Below are positions 78 through 26,432 of a stretch of 26,432 bases of DNA, piece after piece. The position numbers and the translations under genes were made by a program. Position 1 is the stretch's first letter; every line of letters starts with the position of its first letter. The stretch spans positions 1,291 through 27,722 of the forward strand of contig JBBTSL010000045.1 of the NCBI GenBank assembly GCA_038064745.1. The letters are read 5' to 3'. The stretch is from Patescibacteria group bacterium. GTDB taxonomy: Bacteria > Patescibacteriota > Patescibacteriia > Magasanikbacterales > GWA2-37-8. The notes beneath the pieces were generated by a model. The model was not told the origin of the DNA and made no database searches. It saw nothing but the letters and a program-made list of their open reading frames with translations.

Positions 78-152
78 TCCGGGGTAGCTCAGCGGCAGAG
101 CGAAGGACTGTTAATCCTCAGGTCGCGGGTTCGATCCCCGCCCCCGGAGCCA
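78..152 (+). tRNA. tRNA-Asn (anticodon GTT)
   Basis: Acceptor TCCGGGG/CCCCGGA, D arm GCTC-AGCGGCA-GAGC, anticodon loop CT-GTT-AA (GTT at 110-112), T arm GCGGG-TTCGATC-CCCGC, discriminator G and encoded CCA (150-152). Confidence 0.97.
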
Positions 153-156
153 TGAG

Positions 157-186
157 TGAACGTGTGTGGCAACCCACATGCGTTCA
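157..186 (+). other. 13-bp stem-loop directly after the tRNA
   Basis: TGAACGTGTGTGG-CAAC-CCACATGCGTTCA: 13 pairs including 2 G.U pairs on the + strand. Confidence 0.5.
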
Positions 187-189
187 GTC

Positions 190-219
190 AAAAAACCACT
201 ACGAAAGTAGCGGTTTTTT
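190..219. terminator. bidirectional intrinsic terminator
   Basis: AAAAAACC-A-CTAC-GAAA-GTAG-C-GGTTTTTT. GNRA loop on +; the A/C mismatch becomes G.U on -; 6-nt U tract on both strands. Confidence 0.8.
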
Positions 220-484
220 GTTGCCTGCCTGGCTTTCCTGGTTCGGGAAAAAGTTCGATATCCAGTTGTTCGCTTACGACAGGGGTGGGATGAGGAACCA
301 GACGAAGGTTCTATTCTGAGGATATTCCCGAATGAAGTTAACGGTTCGATACCCGACCTAAGTATCGCGTATTCAAAATCGTGTATTTAGAGGTATTATT
401 TCTCTGTGGATCTTTCAAAATTATTATCGGCTCTGGTCGGGGTTTATCCCTGCGGTTGCGGGTGTCGGTGCAATTCCGACAGAA

Positions 485-682
485 ATGTTGATTACATGTC
501 AGGTATTGACCGTAATCGTAATCTCTATGATCAATAAAAAGATCGAAGTTCTTTGGAAGAAGATGCCTTTACTTCCACTCACAGCGTTCTCTATGGGTTA
601 CTTGTTGCGCGATTTATTCGTCAGCATTCTCCTAGGTGAACTCGCGACCAGATTTGATAATGGCGAGTTGGCAAAAATATGA
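485..682 (+). CDS. small hydrophobic hypothetical protein (start may be ATG at 527)
   Basis: Stop overlaps the next start as ATGA (679-682), suggesting translational coupling; short hydrophobic stretch. No family recognised. Confidence 0.35.
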   Translation: MLITCQVLTVIVISMINKKIEVLWKKMPLLPLTAFSMGYLLRDLFVSILLGELATRFDNGELAKI

Positions 683-2094
683 TTCTGGACGAAGAATTTT
701 CGGATAAATTTACTAAATTACTGCATGATTCAGGATATCGGAATAACCTTGAATCGTTCGTAAATCTTTTGCGTTGGACACGGGTGCCTTTTTTGAAGAG
801 AAATGGTTTGTTTATGGCGGTAATGCAGACGAATATGTTGCGTTATCTCGTCGCTTTTCAAAAAGAATTGAGGAGACTTGAAAAAGAAAGTAAGGCGACA
901 ACTGATGTAAAAGAAAAGTCAGAAGTGGAAAGAAAGATTCTGATTGAAAAACAATGGATTCGCACTCTCTACACAATTGCAGATGGAATAGCTTGGAGGG
1001 CTTACGGCTTCAACAGACCACTATTGCGTGTAATGTCTGAAAATAGTTCCCCCGGTGATATTTCCCAAATCGATTATGATTATGTTGCCTTGTTAAGAAG
1101 GGTCCTCGCGAATGCGCCACGATCCACCTTTCGTATCGCAAATGATCTAACGAGATTTTTACGTATCGCAGATTTTACCGTTTTTTATCCCGATGGCAGG
1201 GTGATTCTCTACGAGATCAAAGAAAAGGGTAAAAAGATTTTCGATGTTGGATCTATTTTGAATGAAATGAAATTGCACCGCGTTAAGCCAAACCCGCAAA
1301 AGTTTCGACATCTGGTAGCCCAAATGGCAGTTATAAACAATAAGATCGACGTACCCATCATTCAGGGCAACAAGATCACAAGTAGGTTAGAAGTTGAGAT
1401 ACTCGATCTTGATTTTCCAATTCACACTCATTTGAAAAAGTTGAAAGGACTAATTAAGAAGGCGGATAAAAATGTAATCGCTACGGAATTAGTTGAGGAT
1501 GGTTATTATATACAGGTACTCGCGCTCGATAGAATCAAGAAAGGTCATGATTCCGAAAGTACAAAGAGACAGATGGATGCTGCGCCAGAGTGGATAAAAG
1601 AATGTGGCGGATCTACTATTAAAATAGGCAGTTGGGACGCATTCCTCGAGGCTGGAACCGAATTCCCAAGAAACATTTTGCCATACTCCGTTCTTCCATT
1701 TTCTGCTAAAGATTGTGCCAGAATCATTTTGGGCTATGTTCGGATATCGGTATTTATTAAGGTTGAGTCCCTCAAGGAGAAGTTGATTGAGGAAGGATGG
1801 GACGTTGTGGTCAAAGACCCAACGGATGGATTCGCACATAATTCAAAACGATCTGGCGAACCCATGTTTAGTAAAAACCACGAAGACGTTTTATTTCAAC
1901 TTAAGCGCAGTGACGAAACAGGTACTTATAATACATCGGTACTTCTGACTCAGCTTCTAATTATGGGCAGCTCCTTTTATAGTTTCAGGTTTATTACAGA
2001 CGGTGCGATGGAAATGTTTAAAAGAGCAAAATTGGATCGTGCAACAAGAAGTATTTCCATCAACTATTTAGGCGAAAGAAAAGTTTTGCGCTAG
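679..2094 (+). CDS. hypothetical protein with a putative PD-(D/E)xK nuclease motif
   Basis: 471-aa ORF; NDLTRFLRIADFTVFYPDGRVILYEIK fits D-(x)n-E-x-K; N-terminal helical/coiled-coil stretch. Confidence 0.6.
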   Translation: MILDEEFSDKFTKLLHDSGYRNNLESFVNLLRWTRVPFLKRNGLFMAVMQTNMLRYLVAFQKELRRLEKESKATTDVKEKSEVERKILIEKQWIRTLYTIADGIAWRAYGFNRPLLRVMSENSSPGDISQIDYDYVALLRRVLANAPRSTFRIANDLTRFLRIADFTVFYPDGRVILYEIKEKGKKIFDVGSILNEMKLHRVKPNPQKFRHLVAQMAVINNKIDVPIIQGNKITSRLEVEILDLDFPIHTHLKKLKGLIKKADKNVIATELVEDGYYIQVLALDRIKKGHDSESTKRQMDAAPEWIKECGGSTIKIGSWDAFLEAGTEFPRNILPYSVLPFSAKDCARIILGYVRISVFIKVESLKEKLIEEGWDVVVKDPTDGFAHNSKRSGEPMFSKNHEDVLFQLKRSDETGTYNTSVLLTQLLIMGSSFYSFRFITDGAMEMFKRAKLDRATRSISINYLGERKVLR

Positions 2095-2108
2095 TCTATA
2101 CAGATTTT

Positions 2109-3242
2109 ATGGATCCAATTAAAACAATTGAAAATGAACTACGGAATTTGATTCACGATGTATTGTCGGATAAGTTTGGCGTTTCTTGGACTGATAATAT
2201 AGACGTTGGACTGACCAAAGAATGGACGGGGCGTGGGAATTTAGAAGAAAAGGCGAAAAGGGATAGATCGATTAGAGGAGACGTGGCTATCTACGACATG
2301 CCATTGGCGTACTCAGAATTCTCGCATCTAAAGATTATTCTTGAAAACCGCAAGAGTCTGTTCGAAGAAGTTTTCAAGGAATGGGAAAAGACGATGCAGT
2401 ATCTCTCTGTAGCGGAAAACTTTCGCAACGCGCTAGCACACAATAGAGACATTACCCCGACTCAACAGCAACTGCTGATTGGTATTGCTGGCGAGATTAT
2501 GGATGACATATATCTTTGGCGTATAGGAACCAGCACAGCGATAAAAGAAACCGTGATTGAATTCAGAGACTACATTCCCACCGAGAACAAGATGGAAAGC
2601 GAAGTTTTAGAAGCATCCAGAGTTTTTGTTGTTGATTTGAACAATCTGATCGTTGATGCCTTGAAAAAGAGCGGCTTTGACGATAAAAAGATAGTTGAGA
2701 AAAGAGAAGAATTCGTTTCTCAGATCACTGCACCGCAGATTTCGGTAGATACGCACACGTCACCTAAGGGTCAACCAAATTCTCAGCAAAACGGAATTAA
2801 GTGCAAAAGTTTCATCACCAGCATTCGCTATAAGCCAGCGTGCAAAGTGGATTTAAATTCGATCCTAACTTGCTTCGGTAGGCAATACTTTTCAATTCAG
2901 TTTGTACTTAACAAACCCATAAATGTCGATTCGTTGGTTCACTGGTCTGTAGAAAAAGCAGGTCTAAATCCTGGTAGCACCGTAAAAAGTGGAGACGCTT
3001 TCGATAACGTAGATTACAAACTTTTGAACGGAAAGTTGAGAATTAACGTTTCAAGATCGGGTAGCATTTGCCTTACCTGCGAAGATCCAGAAAGTTTTTG
3101 GTTCCCGCACAGAATTATTTCACCAGATCATCTATTTGGTTTTGTACTTGGGAACATTACGCCTAGAGCCATGATGCATCTCCATCAACGGTCATTTCTT
3201 TCTCTTGGCACGATTGGTGATAGTTCCTCCAGTGATCGTTAG
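2109..3242 (+). CDS. Swt1-like HEPN domain protein (putative RNase) with an unknown C-terminal domain
   Basis: IENELRNLI...LAYSEFSHLKIIL...LFEEVF pattern and the R-x4-H motif RNALAH (R106/H111). Confidence 0.75.
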   Translation: MDPIKTIENELRNLIHDVLSDKFGVSWTDNIDVGLTKEWTGRGNLEEKAKRDRSIRGDVAIYDMPLAYSEFSHLKIILENRKSLFEEVFKEWEKTMQYLSVAENFRNALAHNRDITPTQQQLLIGIAGEIMDDIYLWRIGTSTAIKETVIEFRDYIPTENKMESEVLEASRVFVVDLNNLIVDALKKSGFDDKKIVEKREEFVSQITAPQISVDTHTSPKGQPNSQQNGIKCKSFITSIRYKPACKVDLNSILTCFGRQYFSIQFVLNKPINVDSLVHWSVEKAGLNPGSTVKSGDAFDNVDYKLLNGKLRINVSRSGSICLTCEDPESFWFPHRIISPDHLFGFVLGNITPRAMMHLHQRSFLSLGTIGDSSSSDR

Positions 3243-4523
3243 CTCAGTTCGAACGTGTCCCAGTAAATCTCGTTTCTCTTCTTTTGTCCCTTCTTTAAGG
3301 ATGTATTTTGCACACGCGTACACGTCAATGTCTGGCATGATTTCGGCAACTTTTGCGGTTGCAATGTGACCACCGAGACTCGAGATCATCTTGGTTAGCC
3401 GATCTATTTCCTCTTTGATCCGCGCGACAGCGGCGAGTTCATCGATGTCGACGCTCTCAATGATTTTACAGAGCTGGCTCAATAGCTCTTCTTCTCGAAT
3501 GTACGGCTCTTTACAGCCGGTTACCCAGCGTTTCATGCATCCGTAGTAAACGTATCGCTTTATCGTGCCGTCCTTCAAACGCTTCTTCTTTTCTTCGGCA
3601 CTGATTCCTGAATTACAGTTTCCACATTTAAACATTCGAGTGAATCCGAATTCGTGTGTTCCTGGCGGTACCCGTGTTCCTGTTACTTTCATGACTTCCT
3701 GAACCCGCTCAAACACATCTTTTGTTATTAACGGCTCATGTTTTCCCTGATACCACTGACCGCTCTTCTGCGGAAATTCGTATCGACCCGTGTAGAAAGG
3801 GTTATCCATCATGCGATAGATCATACTTAGCGAAACATTTTTTCCTTTGCGCGTGGTGAAGTTTTTTTCTTTCATATAGTTCTGGATATTGCGTCCTGTC
3901 CATCCTTCGTATGCAACCTTATGGAAGATCTCTTTGACCATCGGTCCACGCTCGGGATCCATGAAAATTCGACGAGCACCCTTTTCTGCATATTTGTCAT
4001 GAAGATATCCGAGAGGTGACATATTCGGTCTGTATCCCATCTCCACCTTGGCTCGGAAGCCACGTTTTACGTTCACGCCTTTGTTGTCGTTCTCCAGCTT
4101 CGCCTGACCACACATCATCATGAGCATGAACTTATCGCTCGGAGAGTTTGTAAACTTCGGTCCATGTGTTCGGATCTCCTGAAGTAAACCCTGATCCATC
4201 AAGTCGACAACCGTACCAAGGTCACCCGCGTTACGACTTATACGATCTGCCGCCCACGTCAGGATTCCATCAAATTTCTTTTCCCTAATGTCCCCAATTA
4301 GACGATTAAACTCCGGGCGTGACCCGGAGTTTTTTGCGGAATGACTTTCGCGACGAACTTCTGCAACGTTTAATCCGTCCCTCACGGCTAGTTCCATGAC
4401 CTCTTTTACCTGGCTCTCAATCGACAAGGCTTGTCGTTCGTCATCCTCCGACGACTTTCTCGCGTAAAGGCAGTAGCGGATTGGTATAGCCTGCGTTTCG
4501 CTGTTCGTATTTTGTCCGTACAT
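3192..4523 (-). CDS. large serine recombinase 1 (short form)
   Basis: YCLYARKSS catalytic motif, DRISRN, recombinase domain (NPFYTG...GKHEPLIT) and Zn ribbon (CGNC...YYGC...C); 443 aa. Confidence 0.93.
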   Translation of the reverse strand: MYGQNTNSETQAIPIRYCLYARKSSEDDERQALSIESQVKEVMELAVRDGLNVAEVRRESHSAKNSGSRPEFNRLIGDIREKKFDGILTWAADRISRNAGDLGTVVDLMDQGLLQEIRTHGPKFTNSPSDKFMLMMMCGQAKLENDNKGVNVKRGFRAKVEMGYRPNMSPLGYLHDKYAEKGARRIFMDPERGPMVKEIFHKVAYEGWTGRNIQNYMKEKNFTTRKGKNVSLSMIYRMMDNPFYTGRYEFPQKSGQWYQGKHEPLITKDVFERVQEVMKVTGTRVPPGTHEFGFTRMFKCGNCNSGISAEEKKKRLKDGTIKRYVYYGCMKRWVTGCKEPYIREEELLSQLCKIIESVDIDELAAVARIKEEIDRLTKMISSLGGHIATAKVAEIMPDIDVYACAKYILKEGTKEEKRDLLGHVRTELTITGGTITNRAKRKK

Positions 4524-4729
4524 AGATTTGGTTACTCCTTATACCCACACACTACCGCGTCTGTCCCAGGTGCCTAGTCACGACCTGTAGGCAAGCTGTA
4601 GGTAACTAATTGATTAAAAAATGCCAATATTTGCTAGTATTAGGTCAGATTTTTCTACTTTTCCCGTCATGAACAAATATGTTGCTCCTGTGGTCATTTT
4701 CTGATAAAATTCGAGGGAATATTTTTCCT

Positions 4730-7700
4730 ATGGCAACTTCTCGAATCATCGATAATCATCGACAGTCACTTCTTGCTGCATTTCAAGAGCTTGCCTCTAA
4801 ACACGAAGAAATCTCGATCGCTACAGGTTACTGGGATCTTCCAGGAACAACTCTTGTTTTGCCTCAATTAAAGGACTGTAAAAAAATCCGTCTGCTTATT
4901 GGTCGCGAACCCCTCATTCCCCGATACCAATTAACAAAACCCGAAGTTGATTTTCCCGATAAGGATTTTTTCTCAGACTTGGAACGCCTTGAACACAATG
5001 AAACTTTTAGAGAGTCCGTCGTTAAAATCAAAGATTTAATCGCAAAAGGCGTACTTGAGGTTAGGGTTTATAAAGAAGAATTCTTCCATGCTAAATGTTA
5101 CATTTTTGGAAACTACGAATCCCCTGAAGCGGTGGGCATTATCGGCTCATCTAACTTCACGAAGAACGGCTTGACCGCCAATACTGAACTCAACGCGCTT
5201 GAGGCTGATCATCGCATCGTTACCTACACTCCACGCGTCGAAGATCAGGAGGTCGGTCACCTCGCATGGTTTGACCAATTTTGGAATAAGTCTCTTCCGT
5301 GGGATCAATCGTTTACCGCGATTATTTCCCAATCCTCACATGGCGACCTGCTCTTTACGCCATATGAGATGTACATCAAAACTTTGTACGAAATTTATAA
5401 AGAGGAGTTGGAAGACGAAGATTTGAAGGAGACCACTCGTGGAACATTTACCCTGCACGATTTTCAAATGAAAAACGTTCACGGTCTCATGCGTCGGTTA
5501 CGGAAGCATAAGGTTGCGATGCTAGCTGACTCGGTAGGATTAGGAAAAACTATCACGGCGATTGAGGTCATTAAGCAGTATAAAGAATCCGGCTTGCGTG
5601 TTGAGATTATTTGTCCAAAATCTCTTACCGTGCAATGGGAGAAACAAATGGCGACGCAAAGGATGGATGGCTCTACGCCTATCACGTTGCAAAATCCTCG
5701 CGAGATCGAGCGCAGACGGGGTCTTGATTCAATTGCTGCCGTTGGATTATTCGTGATTGATGAATCGCATAACCTTAAAAGTCGTTCCGGAAAACGCTTC
5801 AAGCAAATCACTGAGTGGATTGGCGCGAATCCAAAAGCTCATGTCTTGCTTTTGACTGCTACGCCAATTAACAACCAGCTCTCCGATATCACCAACCAAA
5901 TCCTGCTTGCGTGCCGAGGAGAAGCAGGTCTTCTACGCTTTGCCGTGCCAGATAAAAAGAACAAACAGACTACGATTGTTGATTTTAACCAAGCGGTAGA
6001 AAACCTCGCGCGTTCAATCAAACGAGATGCCGAGGAAGGAAAGTCCATTGACTTTGGATATGTTCGGGCAACCATGTCACCGATCCTTCGCGAGTTTGTT
6101 GTCCGTCGAACACGCCAAGGGATTGAGAAGGAATACGGCGGGCTTGTAGATGATCAGGGTATTCTTCAAACCTTTCCTAAGGTTGTTCCAGATGTTCGTG
6201 CGTATCGCTTCAATGAAGATGTTGCGAAAAGAATTCGAGACATTACCACCGATTCAGTCGATTTAGATTCACTGTATTCTTTGACGATCAGCGATATTGT
6301 TGATGCTACTCAGCGGCTCACACATCCGATCGATCAGATAAGTAACGCGCAATCCTCAGGTGAGACAGCGGATGTTACTTCTCCGATCGCCTTAATTTAT
6401 CGCACGATCCTTCTGCTCGGTTTCTTACCCTACCGTTGGCAGATGTATCGAACAAAATTTTACGGAAAGACCCGCGAAGAAATTAAGGAAATGAAGCTTT
6501 CGAGCGATGAACGAAACAGTTTGTTCTCTCAGCTTAGTATCTACGGCATTCTCCGTACGATGTTCCTGAAACGTCTCGAATCTTCGGTCAGCGCAATTCA
6601 TTCATCGCTGGAGACTTACGATCATAAGCTCGACATCTTTGAGCGTGGGTTACGCCAAGGGAAAATTATTACGTTAACGAACATTGATGAAATCGACGAA
6701 ATTCTTGGTGACGTTGAGGATAAAGATGCAGAGGAAGTTGAAGTGCCCGAGGAATTCATTCACGACACAATCGATGAAAATAATTATGTAGTCGATGCGC
6801 TCAAAGCCGACGTTGCAAAGGAACGTGAGTTGATTGATTTGCTTCGTCAGCAATTAGTCGTCCTTCACGAAGACGACTCAAAACTCAAGACTTTTGTTGG
6901 TCTTATTGAGGATCTTGCAAAGCGTCAACCAGCTGGTAAAAAAGTCCTTATTTTCTCCTATTACGCTGACACGATTAATTATCTGCGTGAAGTGGTTGAA
7001 ACGCGTACGAATGTCGTAAATAAAGATAACGCTGCATTTTTATCTTCAAATAATCGAGAGGATGCAGAATCGCTTGCGGGTCGATTCTCTCCTGTCTCCA
7101 AACAACACGCACTGAAAGATGGAGAAAAAGAATTATCCTATCTTTTTTCGACCGATATCTTGTCAGAAGGACAGAATCTTCAAGACTGCGGCATTCTTGT
7201 GAACTATGACCTTCACTGGAATCCGGTTCGTATGATCCAGAGAAACGGTCGAGTGAATCGTCTTGGAACATCATTCAAGGATGTCTACATCTATAACATT
7301 TCTCCAGAGGGACAATTGGACGAATATCTGCGTTTGGTCGCACGCCTTGAACGAAAGATCGATCTCATTCGTAACACTATCGGTACGGACACTCCAGTAC
7401 TCGATGAAAAAGCGAATCCGATAGAGTTCGTTGATTCTTGGAAGGACGTTTACAGTAGTGATGTCGAGGCGCGCATGGAAGCGATTCAAAATGCTGAGGG
7501 CGAAGCTGATTTCTTGCTCGCCGAAGATGAGTTTGTTTCAGACTTGAAGAGATTCCATCACGATCCAAATCACACACCAGAACAGAAGGCGGAAATATAC
7601 AATATTCCAAAAAGGAAATGGGGGGTGATGCCGACCGCGACATCTCGCGGTGATGAACGTCCCGATGTCCTCTCACTCGTTTCTCTTCAAAGCTCATCTG

Positions 7701-8200
7701 AAGTTACCCTTGGCTATGCTTTTGTAGCCATGAATAGAGATGGACGCGAAATGCACCACGTGCCTCAACTACAAGCTCTTGAATGGCTTCGTTCAACAAT
7801 TCAACGGAGCAATGAACGTCAAGCTGATCACATCAGTGCTGATCGGGTTAATCTCTTAGCTCGCGCGAAGGAAGCCGCAGAGGCTTACCATGATGACGAA
7901 GTGGTCATCGCTCCTGTTGGACAACAAGGAGACGTTCTTCGGATCATGTACGAACTTCATTTTTCGCAAGACGATCTTGATGTTGTACGAATGGCATTTG
8001 GTACGAAGAATGTCCTTGCTCGTGAAGATATGAAAAAGTGTGTGCGTCGTATCGTAAAAACAAAGAATGAAAATGGCTCGGTCCTACAAGACGTTCAAAC
8101 GATTCTTGATATCGCCCGATCACTTCAGCGTAATATTGACCGTATTGAGCGACCCAACGGAGCGGAACCACTTCTGATGTATGCCAGAACAAACGAATAA
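4730..8200 (+). CDS. PLD-nuclease/SNF2-family helicase fusion
   Basis: FHAKCYIF...IIGSSNFTKNGL (PLD HxK motif); LADSVGLGKT (motif I), IDESHN (II), LLTATPINN (III), SEGQNLQ...NYDLHWNPVRMIQRNGRVNR (V/VI). ATG 4730 preferred over 4679. Confidence 0.92.
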   Translation: MATSRIIDNHRQSLLAAFQELASKHEEISIATGYWDLPGTTLVLPQLKDCKKIRLLIGREPLIPRYQLTKPEVDFPDKDFFSDLERLEHNETFRESVVKIKDLIAKGVLEVRVYKEEFFHAKCYIFGNYESPEAVGIIGSSNFTKNGLTANTELNALEADHRIVTYTPRVEDQEVGHLAWFDQFWNKSLPWDQSFTAIISQSSHGDLLFTPYEMYIKTLYEIYKEELEDEDLKETTRGTFTLHDFQMKNVHGLMRRLRKHKVAMLADSVGLGKTITAIEVIKQYKESGLRVEIICPKSLTVQWEKQMATQRMDGSTPITLQNPREIERRRGLDSIAAVGLFVIDESHNLKSRSGKRFKQITEWIGANPKAHVLLLTATPINNQLSDITNQILLACRGEAGLLRFAVPDKKNKQTTIVDFNQAVENLARSIKRDAEEGKSIDFGYVRATMSPILREFVVRRTRQGIEKEYGGLVDDQGILQTFPKVVPDVRAYRFNEDVAKRIRDITTDSVDLDSLYSLTISDIVDATQRLTHPIDQISNAQSSGETADVTSPIALIYRTILLLGFLPYRWQMYRTKFYGKTREEIKEMKLSSDERNSLFSQLSIYGILRTMFLKRLESSVSAIHSSLETYDHKLDIFERGLRQGKIITLTNIDEIDEILGDVEDKDAEEVEVPEEFIHDTIDENNYVVDALKADVAKERELIDLLRQQLVVLHEDDSKLKTFVGLIEDLAKRQPAGKKVLIFSYYADTINYLREVVETRTNVVNKDNAAFLSSNNREDAESLAGRFSPVSKQHALKDGEKELSYLFSTDILSEGQNLQDCGILVNYDLHWNPVRMIQRNGRVNRLGTSFKDVYIYNISPEGQLDEYLRLVARLERKIDLIRNTIGTDTPVLDEKANPIEFVDSWKDVYSSDVEARMEAIQNAEGEADFLLAEDEFVSDLKRFHHDPNHTPEQKAEIYNIPKRKWGVMPTATSRGDERPDVLSLVSLQSSSEVTLGYAFVAMNRDGREMHHVPQLQALEWLRSTIQRSNERQADHISADRVNLLARAKEAAEAYHDDEVVIAPVGQQGDVLRIMYELHFSQDDLDVVRMAFGTKNVLAREDMKKCVRRIVKTKNENGSVLQDVQTILDIARSLQRNIDRIERPNGAEPLLMYARTNE

Positions 8201-11333: not shown

Positions 11334-11359
11334 TTAATACGAAATAATATTCTTCTGAT

Positions 11360-14388: not shown

Positions 14389-14393
14389 TTCTC

Positions 14394-15104: not shown

Positions 15105-15126
15105 TCGATGAACAGCATCGCATCAT

Positions 15127-18299: not shown

Positions 18300-19542
18300 A
18301 TCGTTGTATAATTACGTCACAGAAGACTGGATCTTTTTCAATTGTGAATGATTTGCGTTTCATCTGCTCGCACGCCGCCATGGTGCTACCCGATCCTCCG
18401 AAGAGGTCGAGGACGATGTCTCCGGGCTTCGTACAGCGTCTGAGCGGCTTCTCGTGAAGCGATACGGGTTTTTCGGTTGGATGCGTATAGTCTTGGCCGT
18501 TGAGTCGTTTGGCGAGCCAGATATCGAACAGATCCACAATGTCATCGATCGTACGGTTACCTGGCTGAATATCGCGGTTGAGAATCTCGGTAAGGTTCAT
18601 CACCTTGTCGCAGAGATACGGCGAACCGATGACCCCATACACGCAAGGCTCATACGCCTTGTTGAACGCGATCTGAGGTGTCATGTTGAAATTGTTCTTC
18701 ACCCATAGGCACACGCGCTTATTTTTTATTCCAGTTTCCTCGTAAAGGGATTGCAGAAGTCCGATGGAAAGTTGGTCTACCCACATAAAGAAGTGGGCAT
18801 CCGGTTTAGCCACCGCCTTCGCGTTTTCAATGCACGTTTTCAGGAACACGCGGTATTCCACTGGCGACTTATTGTCATCGACCTTGCCGCCATACTTACC
18901 TTTGGTCGAAATACCCTTGGAGTAGTCGAGCGAAATGTTGTAGGGAAAATCCGAGTAACACATGTCTACCTTGTGTTTGCCCATGATATGAGACACGGCT
19001 TTTGGGTCTGTGGAATCACCGCACAATAAAATGTGATCACCGAGCTGGAACATCTCCCCGAGTTTTGTCTTCGGCTTCTTGATCGCTGCCGCGGCTTTCT
19101 CCGAATCGAAGTCGTCTTCTTCGACGGAGAGCGTGTCATCCCATATGTGGCTGAGATCAGTTTCATCGAACCCTACCTCGATCAGCATCTCCATGTTGAA
19201 TTCCTTCAGGAGATCCCAATCCCATTCGCCAGTATTTCTGTTTAACCTGACGTTTAACTCCTTCTCTCTTTCAAGATCCGGAATGTTCACGTAAACGACT
19301 GGCACCTGCGTAAAGCCAAGAGACTTGGCGACGGATAATCTGAAGTTCCCCCCGATTACTATGTTCTTCCGCTTTGGCGCGGAGTTCACAATCAGGGGGT
19401 CAAGCATGCCAAATCGCTTGATACTGTCCTTGAGCTTTTCCTCCGCGATCACATCGTGTTTTCTCGGATTGAAGCTTGGCGTGGTAAGTGCATCTATTGC
19501 GACGTACTCCACTTTGATTGAACCTTTGGATATTTCTGACAT
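18259..19542 (-). CDS. ParB-like N-terminal domain fused to N4/N6 DNA methyltransferase
   Basis: NPRK...FGMLDPLIVN...IGGNFR...LNRNTGEWD (ParB-N); SDFPYN, HPTEKP, LDLFGGSGST (MTase). Confidence 0.92.
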   Translation of the reverse strand: MSEISKGSIKVEYVAIDALTTPSFNPRKHDVIAEEKLKDSIKRFGMLDPLIVNSAPKRKNIVIGGNFRLSVAKSLGFTQVPVVYVNIPDLEREKELNVRLNRNTGEWDWDLLKEFNMEMLIEVGFDETDLSHIWDDTLSVEEDDFDSEKAAAAIKKPKTKLGEMFQLGDHILLCGDSTDPKAVSHIMGKHKVDMCYSDFPYNISLDYSKGISTKGKYGGKVDDNKSPVEYRVFLKTCIENAKAVAKPDAHFFMWVDQLSIGLLQSLYEETGIKNKRVCLWVKNNFNMTPQIAFNKAYEPCVYGVIGSPYLCDKVMNLTEILNRDIQPGNRTIDDIVDLFDIWLAKRLNGQDYTHPTEKPVSLHEKPLRRCTKPGDIVLDLFGGSGSTMAACEQMKRKSFTIEKDPVFCDVIIQRYEKLTNQKAKRIN

Positions 19543-19572: not shown

Positions 19573-19603
19573 AAAAATCCCAACCGATCAGGTTAGGATT
19601 TTT
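19573..19603 (-). terminator. intrinsic terminator upstream of the ParB-MTase operon
   Basis: On the - strand AAAAAUCCUAACC-UGAUC-GGUUGGGAUUUUUUU: fully paired with one U.G, followed by a 7-U tract. Confidence 0.65.
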
Positions 19604-19844: not shown

Positions 19845-20063
19845 TTACTTGCCGAAACCGCGAATTGTGCCGAGCAAGTCTTCGACAGACGCATTCACGT
19901 CGTCAACGACCTTATCGACCGATTGTTCTTTCTTGAGTGCGATACTTTTCCCGCACCCAGGACAAACCAGTGACTTTTCCTCCCTCACGTCATTGAGAGA
20001 GAAAGAGATTGGTGCCTCGCATCCCGGGCATGCTGTTTTAATTTGCTCTTGCCCGATATCCAT
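19845..20063 (-). CDS. small Zn-ribbon protein (CPGC...CPGC)
   Basis: 72 aa, two CxxC pairs, C-terminal amphipathic helix; near-consensus promoter directly upstream. Confidence 0.75.
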   Translation of the reverse strand: MDIGQEQIKTACPGCEAPISFSLNDVREEKSLVCPGCGKSIALKKEQSVDKVVDDVNASVEDLLGTIRGFGK

Positions 20064-20119: not shown

Positions 20120-20142
20120 GTCCGTCAAGTTTTGCACTTGAC
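20115..20142. promoter_or_regulatory. candidate repressor operator (GTCAAGT half-sites)
   Basis: GTCAAGT at 20115-21 and 20124-30; inverted ACTTGAC at 20136-42, forming a perfect IR with a 5-nt spacer; overlaps both -35 boxes. Confidence 0.55.
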
Positions 20143-20165
20143 TATTATGTACTATCCTGTACTAT
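20138..20165 (+). promoter_or_regulatory. rightward promoter for the repressor operon
   Basis: TTGACT (20138-43), 16-nt spacer, TACTAT (20160-65); ATG follows at 20177. Confidence 0.55.
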
Positions 20166-20176
20166 TATTTTCAAAT

Positions 20177-20827
20177 ATGCATGAAATCCAACAAAAAATC
20201 TTGGAGCTGGCAAAGAAATATGACCTTGGAAGCTTAAGTTTGCGGAAGATCGGCGAGCTTATTGGTCAACCCCATCCACAGCAGGTGAAGCATCACTTCG
20301 AGAAGCTTGTTTCGGCAGGTCTTCTGAAGGCAAGCTTTGACCGAAAGATCGTTAAAAAAGTTGATGTGACTAGGAAAACAGCGGATGGACTTCTGTTGAT
20401 CCCTATTTTTGGCAGTGCAAACGCTGGTCCAGCGACTATTTTTGCAGATGAAACCCTTCAGGGGTACCTGCATGTATCAAAGTCCCTTCTTCCCAAGACT
20501 CGCGGCAAAGTATTCGCGGTGCGCGTGAGCGGAAACTCAATGAATGACGCATCGCTTAACGGCAAAACGATCGACGACGGCGACTTCGCGATTGTCGATT
20601 CTGGTCAGACCGACCCGCCAAGCGGCAAGTACGTGCTGTCAGTCATTGGTGACGTTGCGAACATCAAACGTCTGGTTAAGGACGAGGAAAACGAGCAGAT
20701 TATCCTCGCCTCGGACTCGAAGGAAAAATCGTACTCGCCGATTTACATTCACGAGGACGAAAAAGAGACGTTCCGAATCAGTGGTGTGGTTGTGGAGGTG
20801 ATGAAAGATCCAAAATTAAAAAAGTAA
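20177..20827 (+). CDS. LexA/CI-like repressor (wHTH plus S24 peptidase)
   Basis: N-terminal wHTH, Ala-Gly cleavage site (FGSANAG), catalytic Ser (VSGNSM) and Lys (NIKRL). ATG 20177 preferred over 20132. Confidence 0.9.
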   Translation: MHEIQQKILELAKKYDLGSLSLRKIGELIGQPHPQQVKHHFEKLVSAGLLKASFDRKIVKKVDVTRKTADGLLLIPIFGSANAGPATIFADETLQGYLHVSKSLLPKTRGKVFAVRVSGNSMNDASLNGKTIDDGDFAIVDSGQTDPPSGKYVLSVIGDVANIKRLVKDEENEQIILASDSKEKSYSPIYIHEDEKETFRISGVVVEVMKDPKLKK

Positions 20828-20834
20828 AGTTCAT

Positions 20835-21896
20835 ATGGCTTACGAAATTGACTATCTCCCAGTGGGAGAAGGTGAAAGGGGCGGAGATGCGATCGCATTG
20901 CGTTTTGGAAACCTTGCGGGTTCGCGTGAAGAGCAGACCGTAATTGTGATTGATGGTGGGACTAAGGACTCTGGCACCGCCTTGGTTGAACACATCAAGC
21001 TCTATTACGGAGGAACAGACTTTGTTGACTTTGTAATCTCTACACATCCAGATGCAGATCATGCCTCAGGGCTGTGCGTAGTTTTGGAGCAGATGCGAGT
21101 CGGAACGCTTGTAATGCACAAGCCTTGGGAACATGCCGAAGATATCAAGAGTCTTTTTGTTAACGGCAGAATTACCGCTTCTGGTCTTGAAGATAAACTG
21201 GAAAAGTCGCTTCAGCACGCAAGCGATCTCGAATCGCTCGCCAAGGGGAAAAACATCACGGTAGTTGAACCGTTTCAAGGCGTTGCCGGAATGGACGGAG
21301 CGATTCATGTGCTGGGTCCATCAATGGAATACTATCAATCCTTGCTGCCGCATTTTCGTGGTACACCACAACCAAAAGATGCATTGGGTATTCTTGGAGC
21401 GATAAGAAAAGCAGCGGAAGATATCGTGAATAGTATCCGTGATAGCCTTGACATTGACCTGTTGAACAACGACGAAGATACGACTTCCGCCGAAAATAAT
21501 ACGAGTACTGTGATTCTCTTTAACCTGGACGGTCACAAGATGCTATTTACAGGAGATGCAGGAAAAACCGCCCTTCATAACGCATCCGATTATGCTGAGA
21601 CATCGGGAATCGCGTTAACCGACCTGCATTTTCTTGACGTTCCTCATCATGGAAGCAAGAGAAATCTTAGCAGCAGCCTCCTAAAGAGGATCAAAGCGCA
21701 GGTCGCTTACGTTTCTGTTCCAAAAGAATCAACTAAGCATCCTGCAAAGAAAGTCACCAACGCGCTTAAAAAAATCGGCGCGTCAGTCTATACGACAAAG
21801 GGAAAAACTATTCGATACAGTAGTGCCGATGCTCCGGCGCGGGCAGGATGGAGCGCAATTCAGGAAGAACCGTTCCACGAATACGTCGAGGAATAG
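20835..21896 (+). CDS. ComEC/Rec2-like metallo-beta-lactamase-fold hydrolase
   Basis: GGDAI, VIDGG, STHPDADHASG, LFTGDAG, DVPHHGS; no membrane domain. Confidence 0.88.
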   Translation: MAYEIDYLPVGEGERGGDAIALRFGNLAGSREEQTVIVIDGGTKDSGTALVEHIKLYYGGTDFVDFVISTHPDADHASGLCVVLEQMRVGTLVMHKPWEHAEDIKSLFVNGRITASGLEDKLEKSLQHASDLESLAKGKNITVVEPFQGVAGMDGAIHVLGPSMEYYQSLLPHFRGTPQPKDALGILGAIRKAAEDIVNSIRDSLDIDLLNNDEDTTSAENNTSTVILFNLDGHKMLFTGDAGKTALHNASDYAETSGIALTDLHFLDVPHHGSKRNLSSSLLKRIKAQVAYVSVPKESTKHPAKKVTNALKKIGASVYTTKGKTIRYSSADAPARAGWSAIQEEPFHEYVEE

Positions 21897-21898
21897 AT

Positions 21899-22591
21899 AT
21901 GAAACCAGATGCATATACACTCGTCGCGCGAATATTTCCAGGCATCCTCGGTGTCATTCCGTTTCTTGTCCTATATTTTCGCGCTTTGCGACCATTAATC
22001 GGAGATCTTGTTGATAGTATCTTCGGACTTCAATTCGTTTCTGACGTAACGATCCCCCTCGTTCTTCTGTACCTATTCGTGCAGTTGGCAAAGTACTTAT
22101 CAAAGGAGCTGTACCAGAAGAAAATGTTTAACAACGGTCTGAACATGCCGACGACAAATTTCTTGTTGCATCTCAACGACTTTTTTACAAGGGATTTCAC
22201 GAAAAAAGTACATGAAAAAATCTTGTCGGACTTCAACATTCAAATTCCAAGTATTGAAGCCGAACAATCTGACTCCGTTCATTCCCGAAAGACTATTAGC
22301 GAGGCGGTATCCTGCATCTGCGGAAAAATGAAAAAAGGGCATCTCATCGGTCAGCACAATACAGAATATGGTTTCTGGAGGAATCTCGCCGGAGGATCAA
22401 TTATTTCGGTGATTGCATCGGTAGTGAGCGTTATCGTTTTTGCGTGGCTCTACCCTGATGGGTCAGCTTTGCGTACGTCGATCGCTCTTGGAATCATATA
22501 CTCTATCCATCTGATTTTCGCCAAAAAAATGATAGTTCATTCTGGAGAAGAGTACGCAAAAATACTCATCCGCGAATATGTTGTGAGCTAG
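21899..22591 (+). CDS. 4-TM membrane protein of unknown function
   Basis: Two pairs of hydrophobic helices flanking a soluble domain ending HNTEYGFWRNL; starts 2 nt after the MBL stop. Confidence 0.8.
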   Translation: MKPDAYTLVARIFPGILGVIPFLVLYFRALRPLIGDLVDSIFGLQFVSDVTIPLVLLYLFVQLAKYLSKELYQKKMFNNGLNMPTTNFLLHLNDFFTRDFTKKVHEKILSDFNIQIPSIEAEQSDSVHSRKTISEAVSCICGKMKKGHLIGQHNTEYGFWRNLAGGSIISVIASVVSVIVFAWLYPDGSALRTSIALGIIYSIHLIFAKKMIVHSGEEYAKILIREYVVS

Positions 22592-22612: not shown

Positions 22613-22939
22613 ATGCCAACAAAACAATCAACCGTAGACTACATTCTTGATCAGTTAGCTGATCTTCCTGGCATCGAAGCCAAGAAAATGTTTGGCGAGT
22701 ACGCCTTGTACACGTCCGGTAAAGTTGTTGGGCTGATCTGCGACGATACGCTCTTCATTAAGATTACGGATGCTGGAAAGCAGTTTGTTGGCGATGACTA
22801 CAAGGAGGGTTCTGCGTACCCAGGGGCAAAGGCATCAATGGAAATACACGGAGACTTGTTGGAAAACCGCGAATGGCTTTCGAAACTTGTCGCCATCACT
22901 GAAAAAAATCTACCCACGCCAAAACCAAAGAAGAAATAG
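22613..22939 (+). CDS. TfoX/Sxy N-terminal domain protein
   Basis: VDYILDQL...AKKMFGEYALY..GKVVGLICDDTLFIK. Confidence 0.85.
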   Translation: MPTKQSTVDYILDQLADLPGIEAKKMFGEYALYTSGKVVGLICDDTLFIKITDAGKQFVGDDYKEGSAYPGAKASMEIHGDLLENREWLSKLVAITEKNLPTPKPKKK

Positions 22940-22946
22940 AATCGGT

Positions 22947-24266
22947 ATGCAAGAAAAAATGCAAAAGCCAATTGCATACTGTCTTTACGCGCGTAAAAGC
23001 AGCGAGTCGGAGGAGCGTCAATCTCTTTCCATTGATTCCCAAATCAAAGAAATGCAGAAGCTCGCCGAGCGCGAAGGCTTAAACATCAAGGAGATAAAAC
23101 GTGAGAGTCGTTCCGCAAAGTCGCGGGGAGACAGACCGATTTTCAACGAGCTGATCAACGACGTTCGTTTTGGTAAATTTGGTGGTATTCTCACATGGGC
23201 AACTGACCGCCTCAGTCGTAATGCTGGAGATTTAGGCGCACTGGTCGATCTGATGGATGCGGGAAAACTTATTGATATTCGCACGTTCAACCAGCGTTTC
23301 ACGAATTCGCCCAACGAGAAGTTTTTGCTCATGATTCTTGGCAGTCAGGCGAAACTAGAGAACGACAACCGAAGCGTAAACGTAAAGCGCGGTATTCGTT
23401 CTCGCGTCCAAGCTGGATTATGGCCTGGTCCTGCGCCTATTGGCTATCTCAACCAAAACCGTACGGATAAAAGATGCGAAGTGATCGTCGATATCGAGCG
23501 AGCGCCTACCATCAAACAAATGTTTGAGAAGGTGGCTAATAATCGCATGAGTACGAGGAATATTTACCAGTGGTTGAAGGACATCGGATTTCGTTCACAT
23601 CACGGAAAAGTTTTCGCCCACAGTAGCGTACAAAGAACGCTGAATAATCCATTTTACTACGGGCGGTTCGAGCATCCTAAGAAAAGCGGTAAGTGGCATA
23701 CGGGCAAACACGAGCCGATCATCACCAAGGCGTTGTTTCAAAAAGTTCAGGATCGACTTCATCGTATTCAGACCAAGCGAAGCGTGAAGGAGTTTTCTTT
23801 TGTCCGTCTTTTTACCTGTGGTCTTTGCGGATCTGGCATCGTTGCTGAGGACAAGGTGAAGAAGCTAAGTGACGGAACGATAGCTCATTACATTTATTAC
23901 GGGTGCAGTCGTGGTCGGGATCGATTCTGCAAGAATAGCTATATTCGCGAGGAGGAGCTGATCAAGGAGCTGGTTGGAATCATCGACACGGCAGAAATTG
24001 ATGAACTTGGCATTCGTTATAAATTCGACGAAGAGGTCACGCGGTACGGCAAGTTTTTAAATCACGTTCTAGGCAAACCCACAGATCTCAAAGCGGAAGA
24101 GATCGAGCTAAATATTCGGGCATACGCCAAGTACGTCTTAATGGACGGTTCCAAAACCGAAAAGCGCGAACTCCTCGGACATTTGCGGAGCCGCCTCGTT
24201 TATACGCACAAGAAGTTTCGTCTTTTACCTTCCGAGCAACAGGAAGAGGAATCAGTCGTCCAGTAA
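22947..24266 (+). CDS. large serine recombinase 2 (short form, paralogue of recombinase 1)
   Basis: YCLYARKSS, DRLSRN, NPFYYG...GKHEPIIT, CGLC...YYGC...C. ATG 22947 (or 22959); the 22770 start overlaps tfoX. Confidence 0.93.
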   Translation: MQEKMQKPIAYCLYARKSSESEERQSLSIDSQIKEMQKLAEREGLNIKEIKRESRSAKSRGDRPIFNELINDVRFGKFGGILTWATDRLSRNAGDLGALVDLMDAGKLIDIRTFNQRFTNSPNEKFLLMILGSQAKLENDNRSVNVKRGIRSRVQAGLWPGPAPIGYLNQNRTDKRCEVIVDIERAPTIKQMFEKVANNRMSTRNIYQWLKDIGFRSHHGKVFAHSSVQRTLNNPFYYGRFEHPKKSGKWHTGKHEPIITKALFQKVQDRLHRIQTKRSVKEFSFVRLFTCGLCGSGIVAEDKVKKLSDGTIAHYIYYGCSRGRDRFCKNSYIREEELIKELVGIIDTAEIDELGIRYKFDEEVTRYGKFLNHVLGKPTDLKAEEIELNIRAYAKYVLMDGSKTEKRELLGHLRSRLVYTHKKFRLLPSEQQEEESVVQ

Positions 24267-24737
24267 TAACTCAGAATCCAGGCTCAGATTCTCTTCCTTC
24301 AGAAATACATAGAAGTACGGTTTACCATTAGCATTTCTAACAATCCTTGCTTTCAGCTCGCCACTTCGTGCTTTCGCCTGAACCGTCGTGTGATGCCAGC
24401 CGTATTTTGATGTGAGCTGGCTTACTGAGAACCACGCTTTGTCGTCCAAGACTGCCGATCCGGGGACAACGTCTTCATCGACCGCCTTTCGGCAGAGCGG
24501 ACACTTGAGACCGTACTGGTCATACCAGCCCTCGTTATCCCTCATGGATCGACGGCACAAATTGCAGTCGTAAATCCCGTAGGTTATCGGGAAACCGTCG
24601 GGTTCAGTTTTGAGCCGCTCTTTCCATCCCTCAAGCCGCATGTGAATGCTCAGGAGTAGCTCGCCGAATTTCACAAATTGCACGATTTCCTCATCCGTAA
24701 AACTTCGGTTTTGTTCGTGTTCCGTTCGTGTTTCCAT
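24252..24737 (-). CDS. Zn-finger plus excisionase/MerR-like wHTH protein
   Basis: CNLC...CPLC, then FSVSQLTSKYGWHHTTVQAKARSGELKAR. ATG 24737 preferred because the 24920 extension crosses the repeat/att region. Confidence 0.65.
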   Translation of the reverse strand: METRTEHEQNRSFTDEEIVQFVKFGELLLSIHMRLEGWKERLKTEPDGFPITYGIYDCNLCRRSMRDNEGWYDQYGLKCPLCRKAVDEDVVPGSAVLDDKAWFSVSQLTSKYGWHHTTVQAKARSGELKARIVRNANGKPYFYVFLKEENLSLDSELLLDD

Positions 24738-24773
24738 AGTTGTTAAATTCCCTTTATATTCGCTATTTTTGTG

Positions 24774-24859
24774 TGAGACAGACCCCCTCTGTACTGTCTC
24801 AGATGTCTCATTTTGATGAGACCCGGGTGCTTGTTTGACCCCCTCAAAAGACCCCTCAA
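24774..24859. repeat. cluster of short inverted and direct repeats beside the att-like site
   Basis: TGAGACAG/CTGTCTCA IR (24774-81/24794-801); GTCTCAT/ATGAGAC IR (24805-11/24816-22); GACCCC(C)TC at 24781, 24837 and 24850. Confidence 0.6.
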
Positions 24860-26432
24860 TCATTGATGGAAAGTGAGTTCGAGATCCGCCCGCCGAGCCA
24901 TGTAGAACCGACCATTGCAAAACGGTCGGTTTTACATTTAGTAGCAGGCGTTTTCGTCGGTTCTAACCTTCTATACTCCATTTCAAGTGCAGGATAGCTT
25001 TCGATGATTGGTTTGAACCAAAAATGTGGCTGAATGCTGAGTTTTCCGTTCAAAATTGTCGGGTTCGAACCTAAAGCCATCATGATCTCTTTTTTCTTGT
25101 GAACATCACCCTTTAGGAATGCGCTGTGAGCGTAGGTGGCAAAATCAAATACTTGCTCGGTTAGTTCTAGCCAATTCTCAGCCCGAGAATCCAACCGGGC
25201 TATTTCAGAGGCTATTTTCTGCATCTCCCCCTTGAGCCTGTCGCGTTCCTTGATATAGCCATCATCGTCGATAAGGTCACGAACACGCATTCCGGTAAGG
25301 TTGTCGATCTGCGCCTGCGTTGAGGTATGAGTTTTTATTAGGGACTCATAGACTGACGATCGGGTAGTGACTTCCTTTTCATGTTCCTTTCCCAAACATT
25401 CCAGCGCCCAAGATCGGAATTCCGGCATGATAGTGAGCTTCGAAAGCTCATGCTCAACTTGCTCGGTTAAAACGTCTTCCGTAATACAAGTACGTTGAGA
25501 GCATGAAATGTCCTTTCGTTTCCGTGTGCAATGATAGTAGGTGTAGCTCTTGAGCGTCTGAGTGCTCTTAATATGCTTGGTCTTCGTTTCAGCGGTGTAC
25601 ATGCATCCGCACTCCCCACATCGGATAAAACCGGTAAAAGCGAACTCTCGCGTTTGTGGGCGTGCTTTACCGTGTTTACCTAGTAAGCGCTGAACATGAT
25701 CGAATTCTTCTTGAGTGATCATGGGAGTATGACTCCCGTTATGCCACTCTTTTTGATACGAAATCTTTCCAGTATAAAAACGATTATTGAAAATTCTATA
25801 TATGCCGCTTTCTGAAAGCGGCTTGCCACCAATATGGCGCATCTTTCGAGTTCTAAAGCCCCATTCAATATTCGCAATATCTGCAATCTTTGAGGCTGAA
25901 TATGTTCCGGTGAGCATTAAGTCCCACATCTTTCGAACCAATGGGAATCGTTCCGGATCATTAATGATTATTCCGCGGCCTTCATCGTCCTTAGCATTGA
26001 GATAGCCTAAAGAAGCCATGTTTGGCATCCAACCTTTTTCTACACGTCCACGCATGCCGCGCATTGTGTTCTTGCGAAGGTCGAGAATAAATTGATTCGC
26101 CACGCCACCTTCCATGCTTAAAATGAGCGCGTTGTCATCAGGCTTATATTCTCGATCAATTGTCTGAATGGAATGAATAACGCCTTGCTGAAGCATCCAC
26201 TGGAGCGTTCCGCTATCAACTGGATTGCGCGAAAGGCGATTAATCTGCCAACAGAGAATTCCGTGTGCATCACCCTTTTCAATACGCTCAAGCATCTCTA
26301 AAAACAGTGGACGATTGTTTGGTTGCTTTGCAGACTTCGCCTCTTCGTAAATCTCAACTATTTCCAACTTCATCTGCGCGGCAAGAATCTTGAGGCGATC
26401 AATTTGATCTTCAATGCTTTGCACCTGTCTTT
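24856..26432 (-). CDS. large serine integrase 3 (long form), 5' end outside the window
   Basis: Frame open to the window edge (..RQVQSIEDQ; catalytic YxRxS not visible); NRLSRN, NRFYTG, CGECG...YYHC...C, long coiled-coil; more than 522 aa. Confidence 0.9.
   Translation of the reverse strand, partial: RQVQSIEDQIDRLKILAAQMKLEIVEIYEEAKSAKQPNNRPLFLEMLERIEKGDAHGILCWQINRLSRNPVDSGTLQWMLQQGVIHSIQTIDREYKPDDNALILSMEGGVANQFILDLRKNTMRGMRGRVEKGWMPNMASLGYLNAKDDEGRGIIINDPERFPLVRKMWDLMLTGTYSASKIADIANIEWGFRTRKMRHIGGKPLSESGIYRIFNNRFYTGKISYQKEWHNGSHTPMITQEEFDHVQRLLGKHGKARPQTREFAFTGFIRCGECGCMYTAETKTKHIKSTQTLKSYTYYHCTRKRKDISCSQRTCITEDVLTEQVEHELSKLTIMPEFRSWALECLGKEHEKEVTTRSSVYESLIKTHTSTQAQIDNLTGMRVRDLIDDDGYIKERDRLKGEMQKIASEIARLDSRAENWLELTEQVFDFATYAHSAFLKGDVHKKKEIMMALGSNPTILNGKLSIQPHFWFKPIIESYPALEMEYRRLEPTKTPATKCKTDRFAMVGSTWLGGRISNSLSIND
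24877..24902 (+). repeat. degenerate tRNA 3'-end copy (att-like)
   Basis: GTTCGAGATCCGCCCGCCGAGCCATG versus tRNA 129-154 GTTCGATCCCCGCCCCCGGAGCCATG: 21/26 identical, ungapped, same orientation. Confidence 0.65.

Follow-up and report, generated by a model that had tools for sequence, protein, structure and literature searches.

Phage-inducible chromosomal islands (PICIs), among them the Staphylococcus aureus pathogenicity islands (SaPIs), are integrated elements without capsid or tail genes that are governed by a repressor switch, often carry accessory or defence genes and encode the small terminase TerS, by which the packaging of a helper phage is redirected. Packaging operon I of SaPIs is under the control of LexA. 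PICIs use a tyrosine integrase, encode their own primase/replicase together with an origin, carry TerS only (or cos sites) and possess genes for remodelling of capsid size. P4-like satellites and phage-inducible chromosomal island-like elements (PLEs) are likewise helper-dependent and integrated and have no capsid genes; they are not known to carry terminase genes, encode their own replication proteins and have tyrosine (P4) or serine (PLE) integrases and other core genes. Capsid-forming PICIs (cf-PICIs) are reported to encode all the proteins for their own small capsids and to steal only tails (10.1101/2022.09.08.507074). The nearest published case that we found is NitKor-E1 of Candidatus Nitrosopumilus koreensis, in which adjacent genes for TerS and the large terminase TerL are the only Caudovirales-like genes, accompanied by an integrase, a restriction endonuclease and a toxin-antitoxin system (Krupovic et al. 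2019, PMC6563490). Its authors stated that a terminase had not previously been found in non-viral mobile genetic elements and interpreted the element as a relic (PMC6563490). Here we describe a stretch of 26,432 nucleotides (the window) from a Patescibacteria genome (Magasanikbacterales; assembly GCA_038064745.1), in which the interval from 153 to ~24,900 is one integrated 24.7-kb copy (element A) of an island that encodes both terminase subunits without virion genes, located at the 3′ end of a tRNA-Asn gene. That the window belongs to a recurrent family of such capsid-less terminase islands is close to certain. The literature on bacteria of the candidate phyla radiation (CPR)/Patescibacteria that deals with terminases, recombinases, prophages or satellites was searched, and no description of this family was found.

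Element A shares with PICIs and SaPIs its integrated state, a similar size, a repressor switch, accessory/defence genes, the lack of capsid and tail genes and the presence of TerS. It differs from them in having a serine recombinase and no tyrosine integrase, no primase, Rep or other replication gene, an intact TerL next to TerS, and one or two DNA methylases. Like cf-PICIs, it would be a satellite encoding both TerS and TerL of its own, but portal, protease, capsid and adaptor genes were not detected in the window, in its relatives or in this genome. The likeness to P4-like satellites and PLEs lies in the integrated state, the lack of capsid genes and helper dependence, the last of which is, for the island, a proposal; no homology of element A to either was seen. 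NitKor-E1 is a single archaeal (thaumarchaeon) case with a tyrosine integrase, whereas the island family is spread across the phylum, encodes a serine recombinase and methylases and is under purifying selection.

The window comprises bases 1291–27722 of contig C45 (JBBTSL010000045.1), the longest in a 939-kb, 179-contig assembly scored 98% complete. Its right edge is the end of the contig, and no contig-end overlaps that would extend C45 were found; Logan contigs do extend past 26,430. DNA of the window is present in groundwater metagenomes from two studies. Open reading frames (ORFs) were listed and scanned with Pfam, PHROG and PADLOC, and tRNA genes were sought with ARAGORN and Rfam. TerL was surveyed in 401 sampled Patescibacteria genomes from 320 genera. 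The comparison of genome loci covers 27 of them, i.e. 26 fetched loci and the window; IMG/VR loci were counted separately. Logan contigs (contigs, not reads) from four runs were placed on positions 6433–26432.

The packaging module of element A is encoded on the minus strand and reads, in the direction of transcription, as a ParB_N-methyltransferase fusion (ParB-MTase; 18259..19542; Pfam ParB_N), an N6/N4 DNA methyltransferase (MTase; 17493..18299; Pfam N6_N4_Mtase), a TerS of the helix-turn-helix (HTH) type (17066..17527; PHROG terminase small subunit families at 1e-7 to 1e-5, Pfam HTH_Tnp_1_2) and an intact TerL (15643..17121; phrog_38 at 5e-76). Large serine recombinase 1 (3192..4523, minus strand; Pfam Resolvase, Recombinase and Zn-ribbon) stands in the canonical position of the family, as the last core gene and facing the tRNA, and is 52–56% identical to the recombinase that follows TerL in loci L002–L007. 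Relatives of this TerL, at 36–52% identity, were found in 45 of the 401 sampled genomes (about one in nine) and in 41 of the 320 genera, but in none of the six sampled genomes of the window's own family. The reference-genome relatives are all metagenome-assembled genomes, from Peribacteria, Peregrinibacteria and other Patescibacteria, which identifies the host as a CPR bacterium.

In all 27 genome loci the same arrangement is seen on a single strand: one or two MTases, TerS, TerL, zero to eight variable genes and a serine recombinase, the last belonging in every case to the same clade as recombinases 1 and 2 of the window. Every IMG/VR contig with a TerL of at least 44% identity also has the order MTase-TerS-TerL-cargo-recombinase. 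The ParB_N-MTase fusion was confirmed by homology in L002–L007, in L046 and L057 and in the IMG/VR loci with TerL at that identity or above. The recombinase directly follows TerL in seven loci (L039, L040, L047, L048, L050, L054, L055), giving a unit of only ~5–6 kb. Because the distribution is patchy, the genomic contexts differ and some genomes hold two copies, the island family is likely to be a self-mobilising unit. A first-pass annotation of the window had listed a tRNA, a CI/LexA-like repressor, ParB-MTase, MTase, TerS, TerL, three serine recombinases and defence cargo; the Pfam, PHROG and PADLOC matches confirmed this list. Its expectation that the core would recur with variable cargo and without structural genes was also borne out, in the 27 genome loci as well as in the IMG/VR loci. 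It had further named two findings that would speak for a decayed prophage, portal and capsid genes present regularly in homologous loci and relaxed selection on the terminase. Carrier genomes almost never hold such genes, and the terminase is strongly constrained, as described below. In one Peribacteria lineage (L002–L007), TerL is duplicated in tandem; the paralogues are full-length and form sister clades, both with dN/dS (ratio of nonsynonymous to synonymous substitution rates) of 0.01–0.05. The same loci have a conserved protein of ~380 aa, without known function, upstream of ParB-MTase.

The island core is intact and under purifying selection. The Walker A, Walker B and acidic nuclease residues are invariant in an alignment of 18 TerLs, and dN/dS between close pairs is 0.01–0.05 for TerL, 0.02–0.13 for TerS, 0.03–0.14 for the MTases and 0.03–0.10 for the recombinase. 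In a quick maximum-likelihood tree, 42 island TerLs, that of the window included, form one clade (SH-aLRT 100). Its sister clade (support 97) comprises 21 TerLs, 16 of them from phage contigs, and no phage TerL falls inside the island clade. The sister-clade sequences from temperate Caudoviricetes (IMG/VR L085–L126) have TerLs at 33–39% identity and the same TerS-TerL order, some with ParB-MTase upstream. In these phages portal, protease, HK97-type capsid and adaptor genes come directly after TerL, where the island has cargo and a serine recombinase. A third small clade, lying outside both the island and the phage clades, is made up of L081–L083 (IMG/VR), short contigs with TerL at 38–41% identity; one member has ParB-MTase upstream.

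The structural genes of the nearest phage contigs are strongly matched by PHROG (down to 2.6e-118, for the portal), so that virion genes of this lineage are easy to detect. No window ORF gave a Pfam or PHROG match to portal, capsid, tail, lysis, primase, Rep or relaxase/conjugation families, and no helicase-loader, primase or Rep domain is present on the ORFs of element A. Hidden Markov models built from the portal, capsid, protease and adaptor of the nearest phages were run against island loci with their flanks (837 kb), the window and the whole genome, without a single match. A Caudoviricetes prophage is not indicated either, since no locus has a structural module after TerL and no relaxed selection is seen. 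A gene transfer agent would have head and tail genes elsewhere in the genome; in a search limited to two families, the phrog_12 portal is found in one of the 45 carrier genomes and the phrog_10 capsid in one or two, with neither in this genome. An exception is genome G016, which has two island copies and, on a separate contig (C12), portal, protease and HK97-type capsid genes (34576–40237; L147, L148). Between this portal and those of the sister phages the identity is 30%; the contig ends within the accompanying TerL gene. The phage on C12 is a candidate helper lineage, linked to the island copies by binning only.

The left end of element A lies at a tRNA-Asn(GTT) gene with an encoded CCA (78..152, plus strand; ARAGORN and Rfam), which constitutes attL. 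The element-side arm (153..185, plus strand) contains AACCCA ~20–25 nt past the tRNA end, a variant of the motif GACCYG. Of the 11 element-adjacent tRNAs examined (ten relatives and the window), 8 have this motif ~23 nt beyond the discriminator base, as against none of 32 control tRNAs from this genome. With the T-arm sequence GGGTTC the motif forms an inverted pair, the two lying at similar distances on opposite sides. From this symmetry the att site appears to have its centre at the 3′ terminus of the tRNA, and this would account for the variety of tRNAs used; the interval from recombinase to tRNA (here 153–3191) would then be a second cargo zone. Among the 26 relatives, 11 have a tRNA gene 0.5–8 kb beyond the recombinase, and its 3′ end faces the element every time. 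The tRNA targeting proposed in the first-pass annotation is partly supported by these 11 and by the conserved junction motif.

At the other end of element A, a degenerate tRNA-Asn 3′ end running from T-loop to CCA (24876..24900, plus strand, in direct orientation with the tRNA copy) constitutes attR. It is identical to the tRNA 3′ end at 128–153 in 21 of 26 positions, and a terminator hairpin follows. An exact-seed search of the rest of the window for directly repeated copies of the tRNA 3′ end had returned none; the degenerate copy surfaced after the placement of Logan contigs had pointed to 24895. A unitig covering 24895–25038 has three times the local depth, and exactly at 24895 an intact tRNA-Asn-like 3′ end meets the sequence in a different context. 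A similar mimic (AGTTCGAGA...AGCCA) stands upstream of a homologous zinc-ribbon/HTH ORF in the IMG/VR locus L109, so that it looks like the far-end arm of the family. The search of five relatives, to ~24 kb upstream, gave no far-side tRNA-end repeats at 18–19/26 matches or better.

The genome has three tRNA-Asn(GTT) sequences, i.e. the copy on C45 (window 78–152), a truncated one at C90:1–55 and one at C101:3647–3719. The C101 copy is the native gene, being the sole one syntenic with relatives; those on C45 and C90 are extra copies that encode CCA and have stems rich in G+C, and the outer junction of the stacked elements may lie on C90. Two further observations concern tRNA genes at relatives. 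In L047 (13339–13788; G016) a tRNA-Asn is accompanied by a second copy whose 3′ and 5′ halves are separated by 215 nt; this may be an insertion- or intron-interrupted tRNA or the scars of repeated integration. In L044 (7573–7813) and L051 (7604–7755), tRNA-Arg and tRNA-Phe genes lie directly 3′ of TerL in the cargo slot, and the island may there carry tRNAs of its own.

The terminal gene of element A (24252..24920, minus strand, likely start near 24737) encodes a protein read from its translation as a zinc ribbon with a C-terminal HTH. L103, L104 and L109 have homologues situated at, or close to, the ends of their elements, and the ORF is a candidate for the recombination directionality factor. 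An Xis-like protein had been listed in the first-pass annotation; this ORF is the best, though a weak, candidate for it, with an Atlas lead to HTH_17 at 0.81 only and no Pfam match. Next to it is large serine recombinase 2 (22770..24266, plus strand, probable start near 22950; Pfam Resolvase, Recombinase and Zn-ribbon), a second family-type recombinase that ends the repressor operon and is 51% identical to recombinase 1. It is preceded by an ORF with a TfoX_N domain (Pfam; within 22613..24266, plus strand). No relative examined has a second recombinase at this position, and the exact sequence of recombinase 2 is not on record in public assemblies.

The third recombinase belongs elsewhere. Recombinase 3 (24856..26430, minus strand; Pfam Resolvase, Recombinase and Zn-ribbon), whose gene is truncated where the contig stops, falls in a different clade and shares only 34% identity with recombinases 1 and 2. 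In all six of its relatives (L170–L175) the last 10–17 codons overlap a convergent tRNA 3′ end (Gln, Ser, Asn, Trp, His, Glu), and the C-terminal tail of the clade, '...W...DSN', is the reverse complement of the tRNA CCA (W) and T-loop (DSN). Five of the six have a zinc-finger protein and a Toprim primase-helicase of ~730 aa next to the recombinase, with an ORF of ~160 aa between in four; in the sixth, L173, an AAA_25 ATPase replaces the primase-helicase module. A search around other island loci and through the rest of this genome gave no convincing copy of the primase-helicase or zinc-finger gene, so element A does not habitually ride with such an element, and beside the left tRNA there is no relic of a recombinase-3-type gene. 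By comparison with these relatives, recombinase 3 opens element B (from 24,901), an independent, replicative, tRNA-targeting element type stacked on the same tRNA locus. The single element with a backbone of three recombinases that had been proposed earlier is therefore abandoned, as the degenerate tRNA end at 24876–24900 sets recombinase 3 apart; the locus is instead a tandem of two unrelated elements with an extra recombinase. Of the earlier statement that virion and replication genes are lacking, the absence of virion genes stands, whereas the absence of replication genes holds for element A only and not past 24,900, since relatives of recombinase 3 are accompanied by the primase-helicase. 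The split into two elements is new here, as are the clade of recombinase genes that overlap tRNAs, the junction motif and its absence from control tRNAs, the tRNA-like mimic at the far end and the operator cluster described next.

A LexA/CI-like S24 repressor gene (20132..20827, plus strand; Pfam Peptidase_S24 at 3e-18) lies divergent from the packaging module. Its translation contains GNSM and IKRL motifs (Ser/Lys) and an Ala-Gly site; the LexA-like N-terminal HTH was recognised by eye only. On the opposite strand an ORF of 72 aa with an ATG start (19845..20063, minus strand) has two CPGC motifs and weak Pfam zinc-ribbon matches; judged from the sequence, it is more likely to be a gene than the overlapping 78-aa ORF on the plus strand. 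Back-to-back promoter-like sites are present between them, at 20119–20091 (11 of 12 positions matched) and 20138–20165. In a pattern scan, three of the four GTCAAGT heptamers of the window, two direct and one inverted, fell within 28 nt (20115–20142) across these divergent sites and form a candidate operator cluster. A hairpin with a 13-bp stem and T runs on both sides, noted by pattern scan and sequence reading, lies 30 nt upstream of the ParB-MTase start (19573..19603) and could serve as a bidirectional terminator that gates the packaging operon.

The repressor gene forms a block (20132..22591, plus strand) with a metallo-beta-lactamase-fold (MBL) protein, matched over its full length by the candidate defence protein PDC-M48B of PADLOC (2e-88), and a 247-aa membrane protein. 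The entire block is found, divergent from the methylase, in L046 and L057, and the MBL and membrane-protein genes alone recur downstream of the recombinase in L078. The block is a candidate regulatory and/or defence cassette; as a candidate defence cassette at varying positions, it is not only a switch. The phage-type switch of the first-pass annotation is upheld in that a LexA-like repressor gene lies at divergent promoter-like sites that bear a clustered repeat, and it has to share the block with this second role.

From these features a helper-dependent life cycle can be proposed. A serine recombinase would integrate the element at the tRNA 3′ terminus, the half-sites being the T-arm GGGTTC and the element-borne GACCYG, and the same recombinase would excise it with a directionality factor, perhaps the zinc-ribbon/HTH protein. 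The self-cleaving LexA-like repressor at the divergent promoters would repress the element until the DNA is damaged or a phage infects. TerS would then recognise island DNA and TerL would pack it into procapsids of a helper phage of the sister TerL lineage. In the recipient, the methylases would shield the transferred DNA from restriction, and the cargo would repay the host by anti-phage defence. We assign a probability of roughly 0.4 to the reading that element A is a copy of a capsid-less terminase island at a tRNA 3′ end that is packaged in this helper-dependent manner. That the family as a whole travels in helper capsids, packed by its own terminase, is the best reading of the sequence evidence, at odds somewhat below even. 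The wider proposal, that these are phylum-wide minimal satellites with TerS and TerL, without portal, capsid or replication genes, which insert by a serine recombinase into the T-arm/3′ end of many different tRNAs and are the main shuttle of defence genes among Patescibacteria, is advanced tentatively.

Several observations weigh against helper-dependent packaging of element A or against parts of it. Element A has no replication gene, though terminases normally act on concatemers. A TerL without a portal must dock on a foreign one, and no helper phage is known from this genome. The position of the S24-MBL-membrane block varies among relatives, and it may be defence cargo rather than a master switch. 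The far-end tRNA-like mimic was found only in the window and in L109; none of the Logan contigs contains a joint that skips element A (these being contigs only), and terminal repeats are present in none of 13 full-length IMG/VR contigs, nine of which are island loci. C45 is assigned to this genome through binning; it carries an extra tRNA-Asn and not the native gene, and its leftmost 1.1 kb stands apart. This flank (C45 bases 1–1100, L001, left of the window) has a G+C content of 55–65% (62% overall) against 48% for the genome and gave no Pfam or Rfam match, and a comparison with 20 genomes from the family returned no homologue. Foreign DNA, a further element or a chimeric assembly may account for it.

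The same observations can be read in other ways. The terminase might have been domesticated in a defence island, where TerS and TerL would hinder related phages from packaging their DNA during infection: concatemers of the invader would be cut or wrongly packaged, or its portals titrated. The island itself would spread by other means, for instance natural transformation or generalised transduction, and the recombinase would then integrate it. The cargo is almost wholly anti-phage, the island TerLs are sister to phage TerLs and so could engage phage procapsids, the TfoX_N ORF within element A has a competence-type domain, and purifying selection fits any function that is kept; the lack of a replication module and of any circular form in Logan and IMG/VR contigs is also in keeping with it. 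Interference alone, however, would need neither a cognate TerS nor protective methylases, and the co-orientation of TerS, TerL, methylases and integrase in 27/27 loci of varied context has the look of a self-transferring unit. No PADLOC model matched the core, the terminase proteins themselves not having been scanned against PADLOC. We consider domestication unlikely, yet worth keeping in view. Packaging might alternatively proceed in situ, resembling lateral transduction, with headful filling that begins on infection at an internal pac site and proceeds through TerL, cargo, recombinase and adjoining chromosome without prior excision. The conserved single-strand order TerS-TerL-cargo-recombinase agrees with this, as pac-TerL-cargo-recombinase would keep cargo and integrase together in transfer, and so does the absence of a replication gene and of circular junctions. 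Such a route would not transfer the methylases, the repressor block and the far-end ORF, which lie upstream of TerS and are nevertheless conserved as part of the element; it is judged improbable. Since it still needs helper capsids, it is a variant of helper-dependent packaging and not an alternative to it.

Two further explanations would make element A a virus, past or present. Decay of a temperate phage that lost its structural, lysis and replication genes and received defence islands is suggested by the packaging module, which clearly derives from phages with the order ParB-MTase-TerS-TerL-portal, and by the interpretation of the archaeal element with TerS and TerL only as a relic (PMC6563490). 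The truncation point, however, is identical, right after TerL, in 27/27 loci and at least 40 genera. Invariant catalytic motifs, the low TerL dN/dS (0.01–0.05), the monophyly of the island TerLs and the absence of any structural-gene fragment in 837 kb show that element A is not a decaying prophage, and only a very small chance is left to this explanation. An autonomous virus would require that a novel capsid and portal are encoded, beyond recognition, by the ORFs without match (679–2094, 14265–15666, 19606–19803). These are not conserved among relatives, the minimal relatives of ~5–6 kb leave no space for virion genes, and a TerL of this type works with a portal, which in the sister phages is easily detected; such a virus is equally improbable. 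Helper-dependent packaging of element A is thus the reading that we retain.

Possession of a terminase is taken as the mark of a true tailed virus; here the TerS-TerL gene set is conserved, selected and mobile in about one-ninth of the sampled Patescibacteria genomes, which raises the question of the purpose of a packaging motor in an element without a capsid. If capsid piracy is the answer, the satellite concept would reach CPR bacteria with a new list of parts, i.e. a TerL without portal, a serine integrase and no replicon, and the movement of defence systems among organisms with genomes of ~1 Mb would be explained. It would be the first satellite system of CPR bacteria and the first satellite whose own TerL motor docks on the portal of a helper. 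The T-arm-centred att sites in two unrelated clades of serine recombinases bear on the choice of targets by serine integrases.

The cargo of the family occupies three sites, i.e. the gap between TerL and the recombinase, the gap between the recombinase and the tRNA, and the region upstream of the methylase. In relatives the TerL-to-recombinase slot holds the zero to eight variable genes, often DUF2779 proteins, type IIG restriction-modification enzymes and other large defence-type genes. In the window this hotspot (4679..13807, plus strand; Pfam and PADLOC) encodes an HKD(PLD)-SNF2 helicase, a type IIG restriction-modification enzyme (PADLOC 1.5e-192), a DUF2779/Cas4-like nuclease and a PD-T7-5-like protein; within 4679–12826, the HKD-SNF2 helicase and the type IIG/MmeI-like enzyme are paired with the DUF2779 nuclease. 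The block on the tRNA side (485..3242, plus strand) consists of a 65-aa ORF, a 471-aa protein without assigned function (the unmatched ORF at 679–2094) and a 377-aa HEPN protein (Pfam HEPN_Swt1 at 0.0017; PADLOC PDC-M34B at 1e-12). A YbaK/tRNA_edit-like ORF (13791–14273, minus strand; Pfam tRNA_edit at 6e-8) follows the hotspot, and four small ORFs between cargo and TerL (within 13791..15666) have no Pfam match and, for the three tested, no PHROG match. In Logan contigs from several runs a cluster of variants is seen at 14436–14532, with a 1-nt deletion at 14514 and divergence at 14498 and 14532; lying between the cargo and the small ORFs, it looks like strain heterogeneity or a recombination breakpoint.

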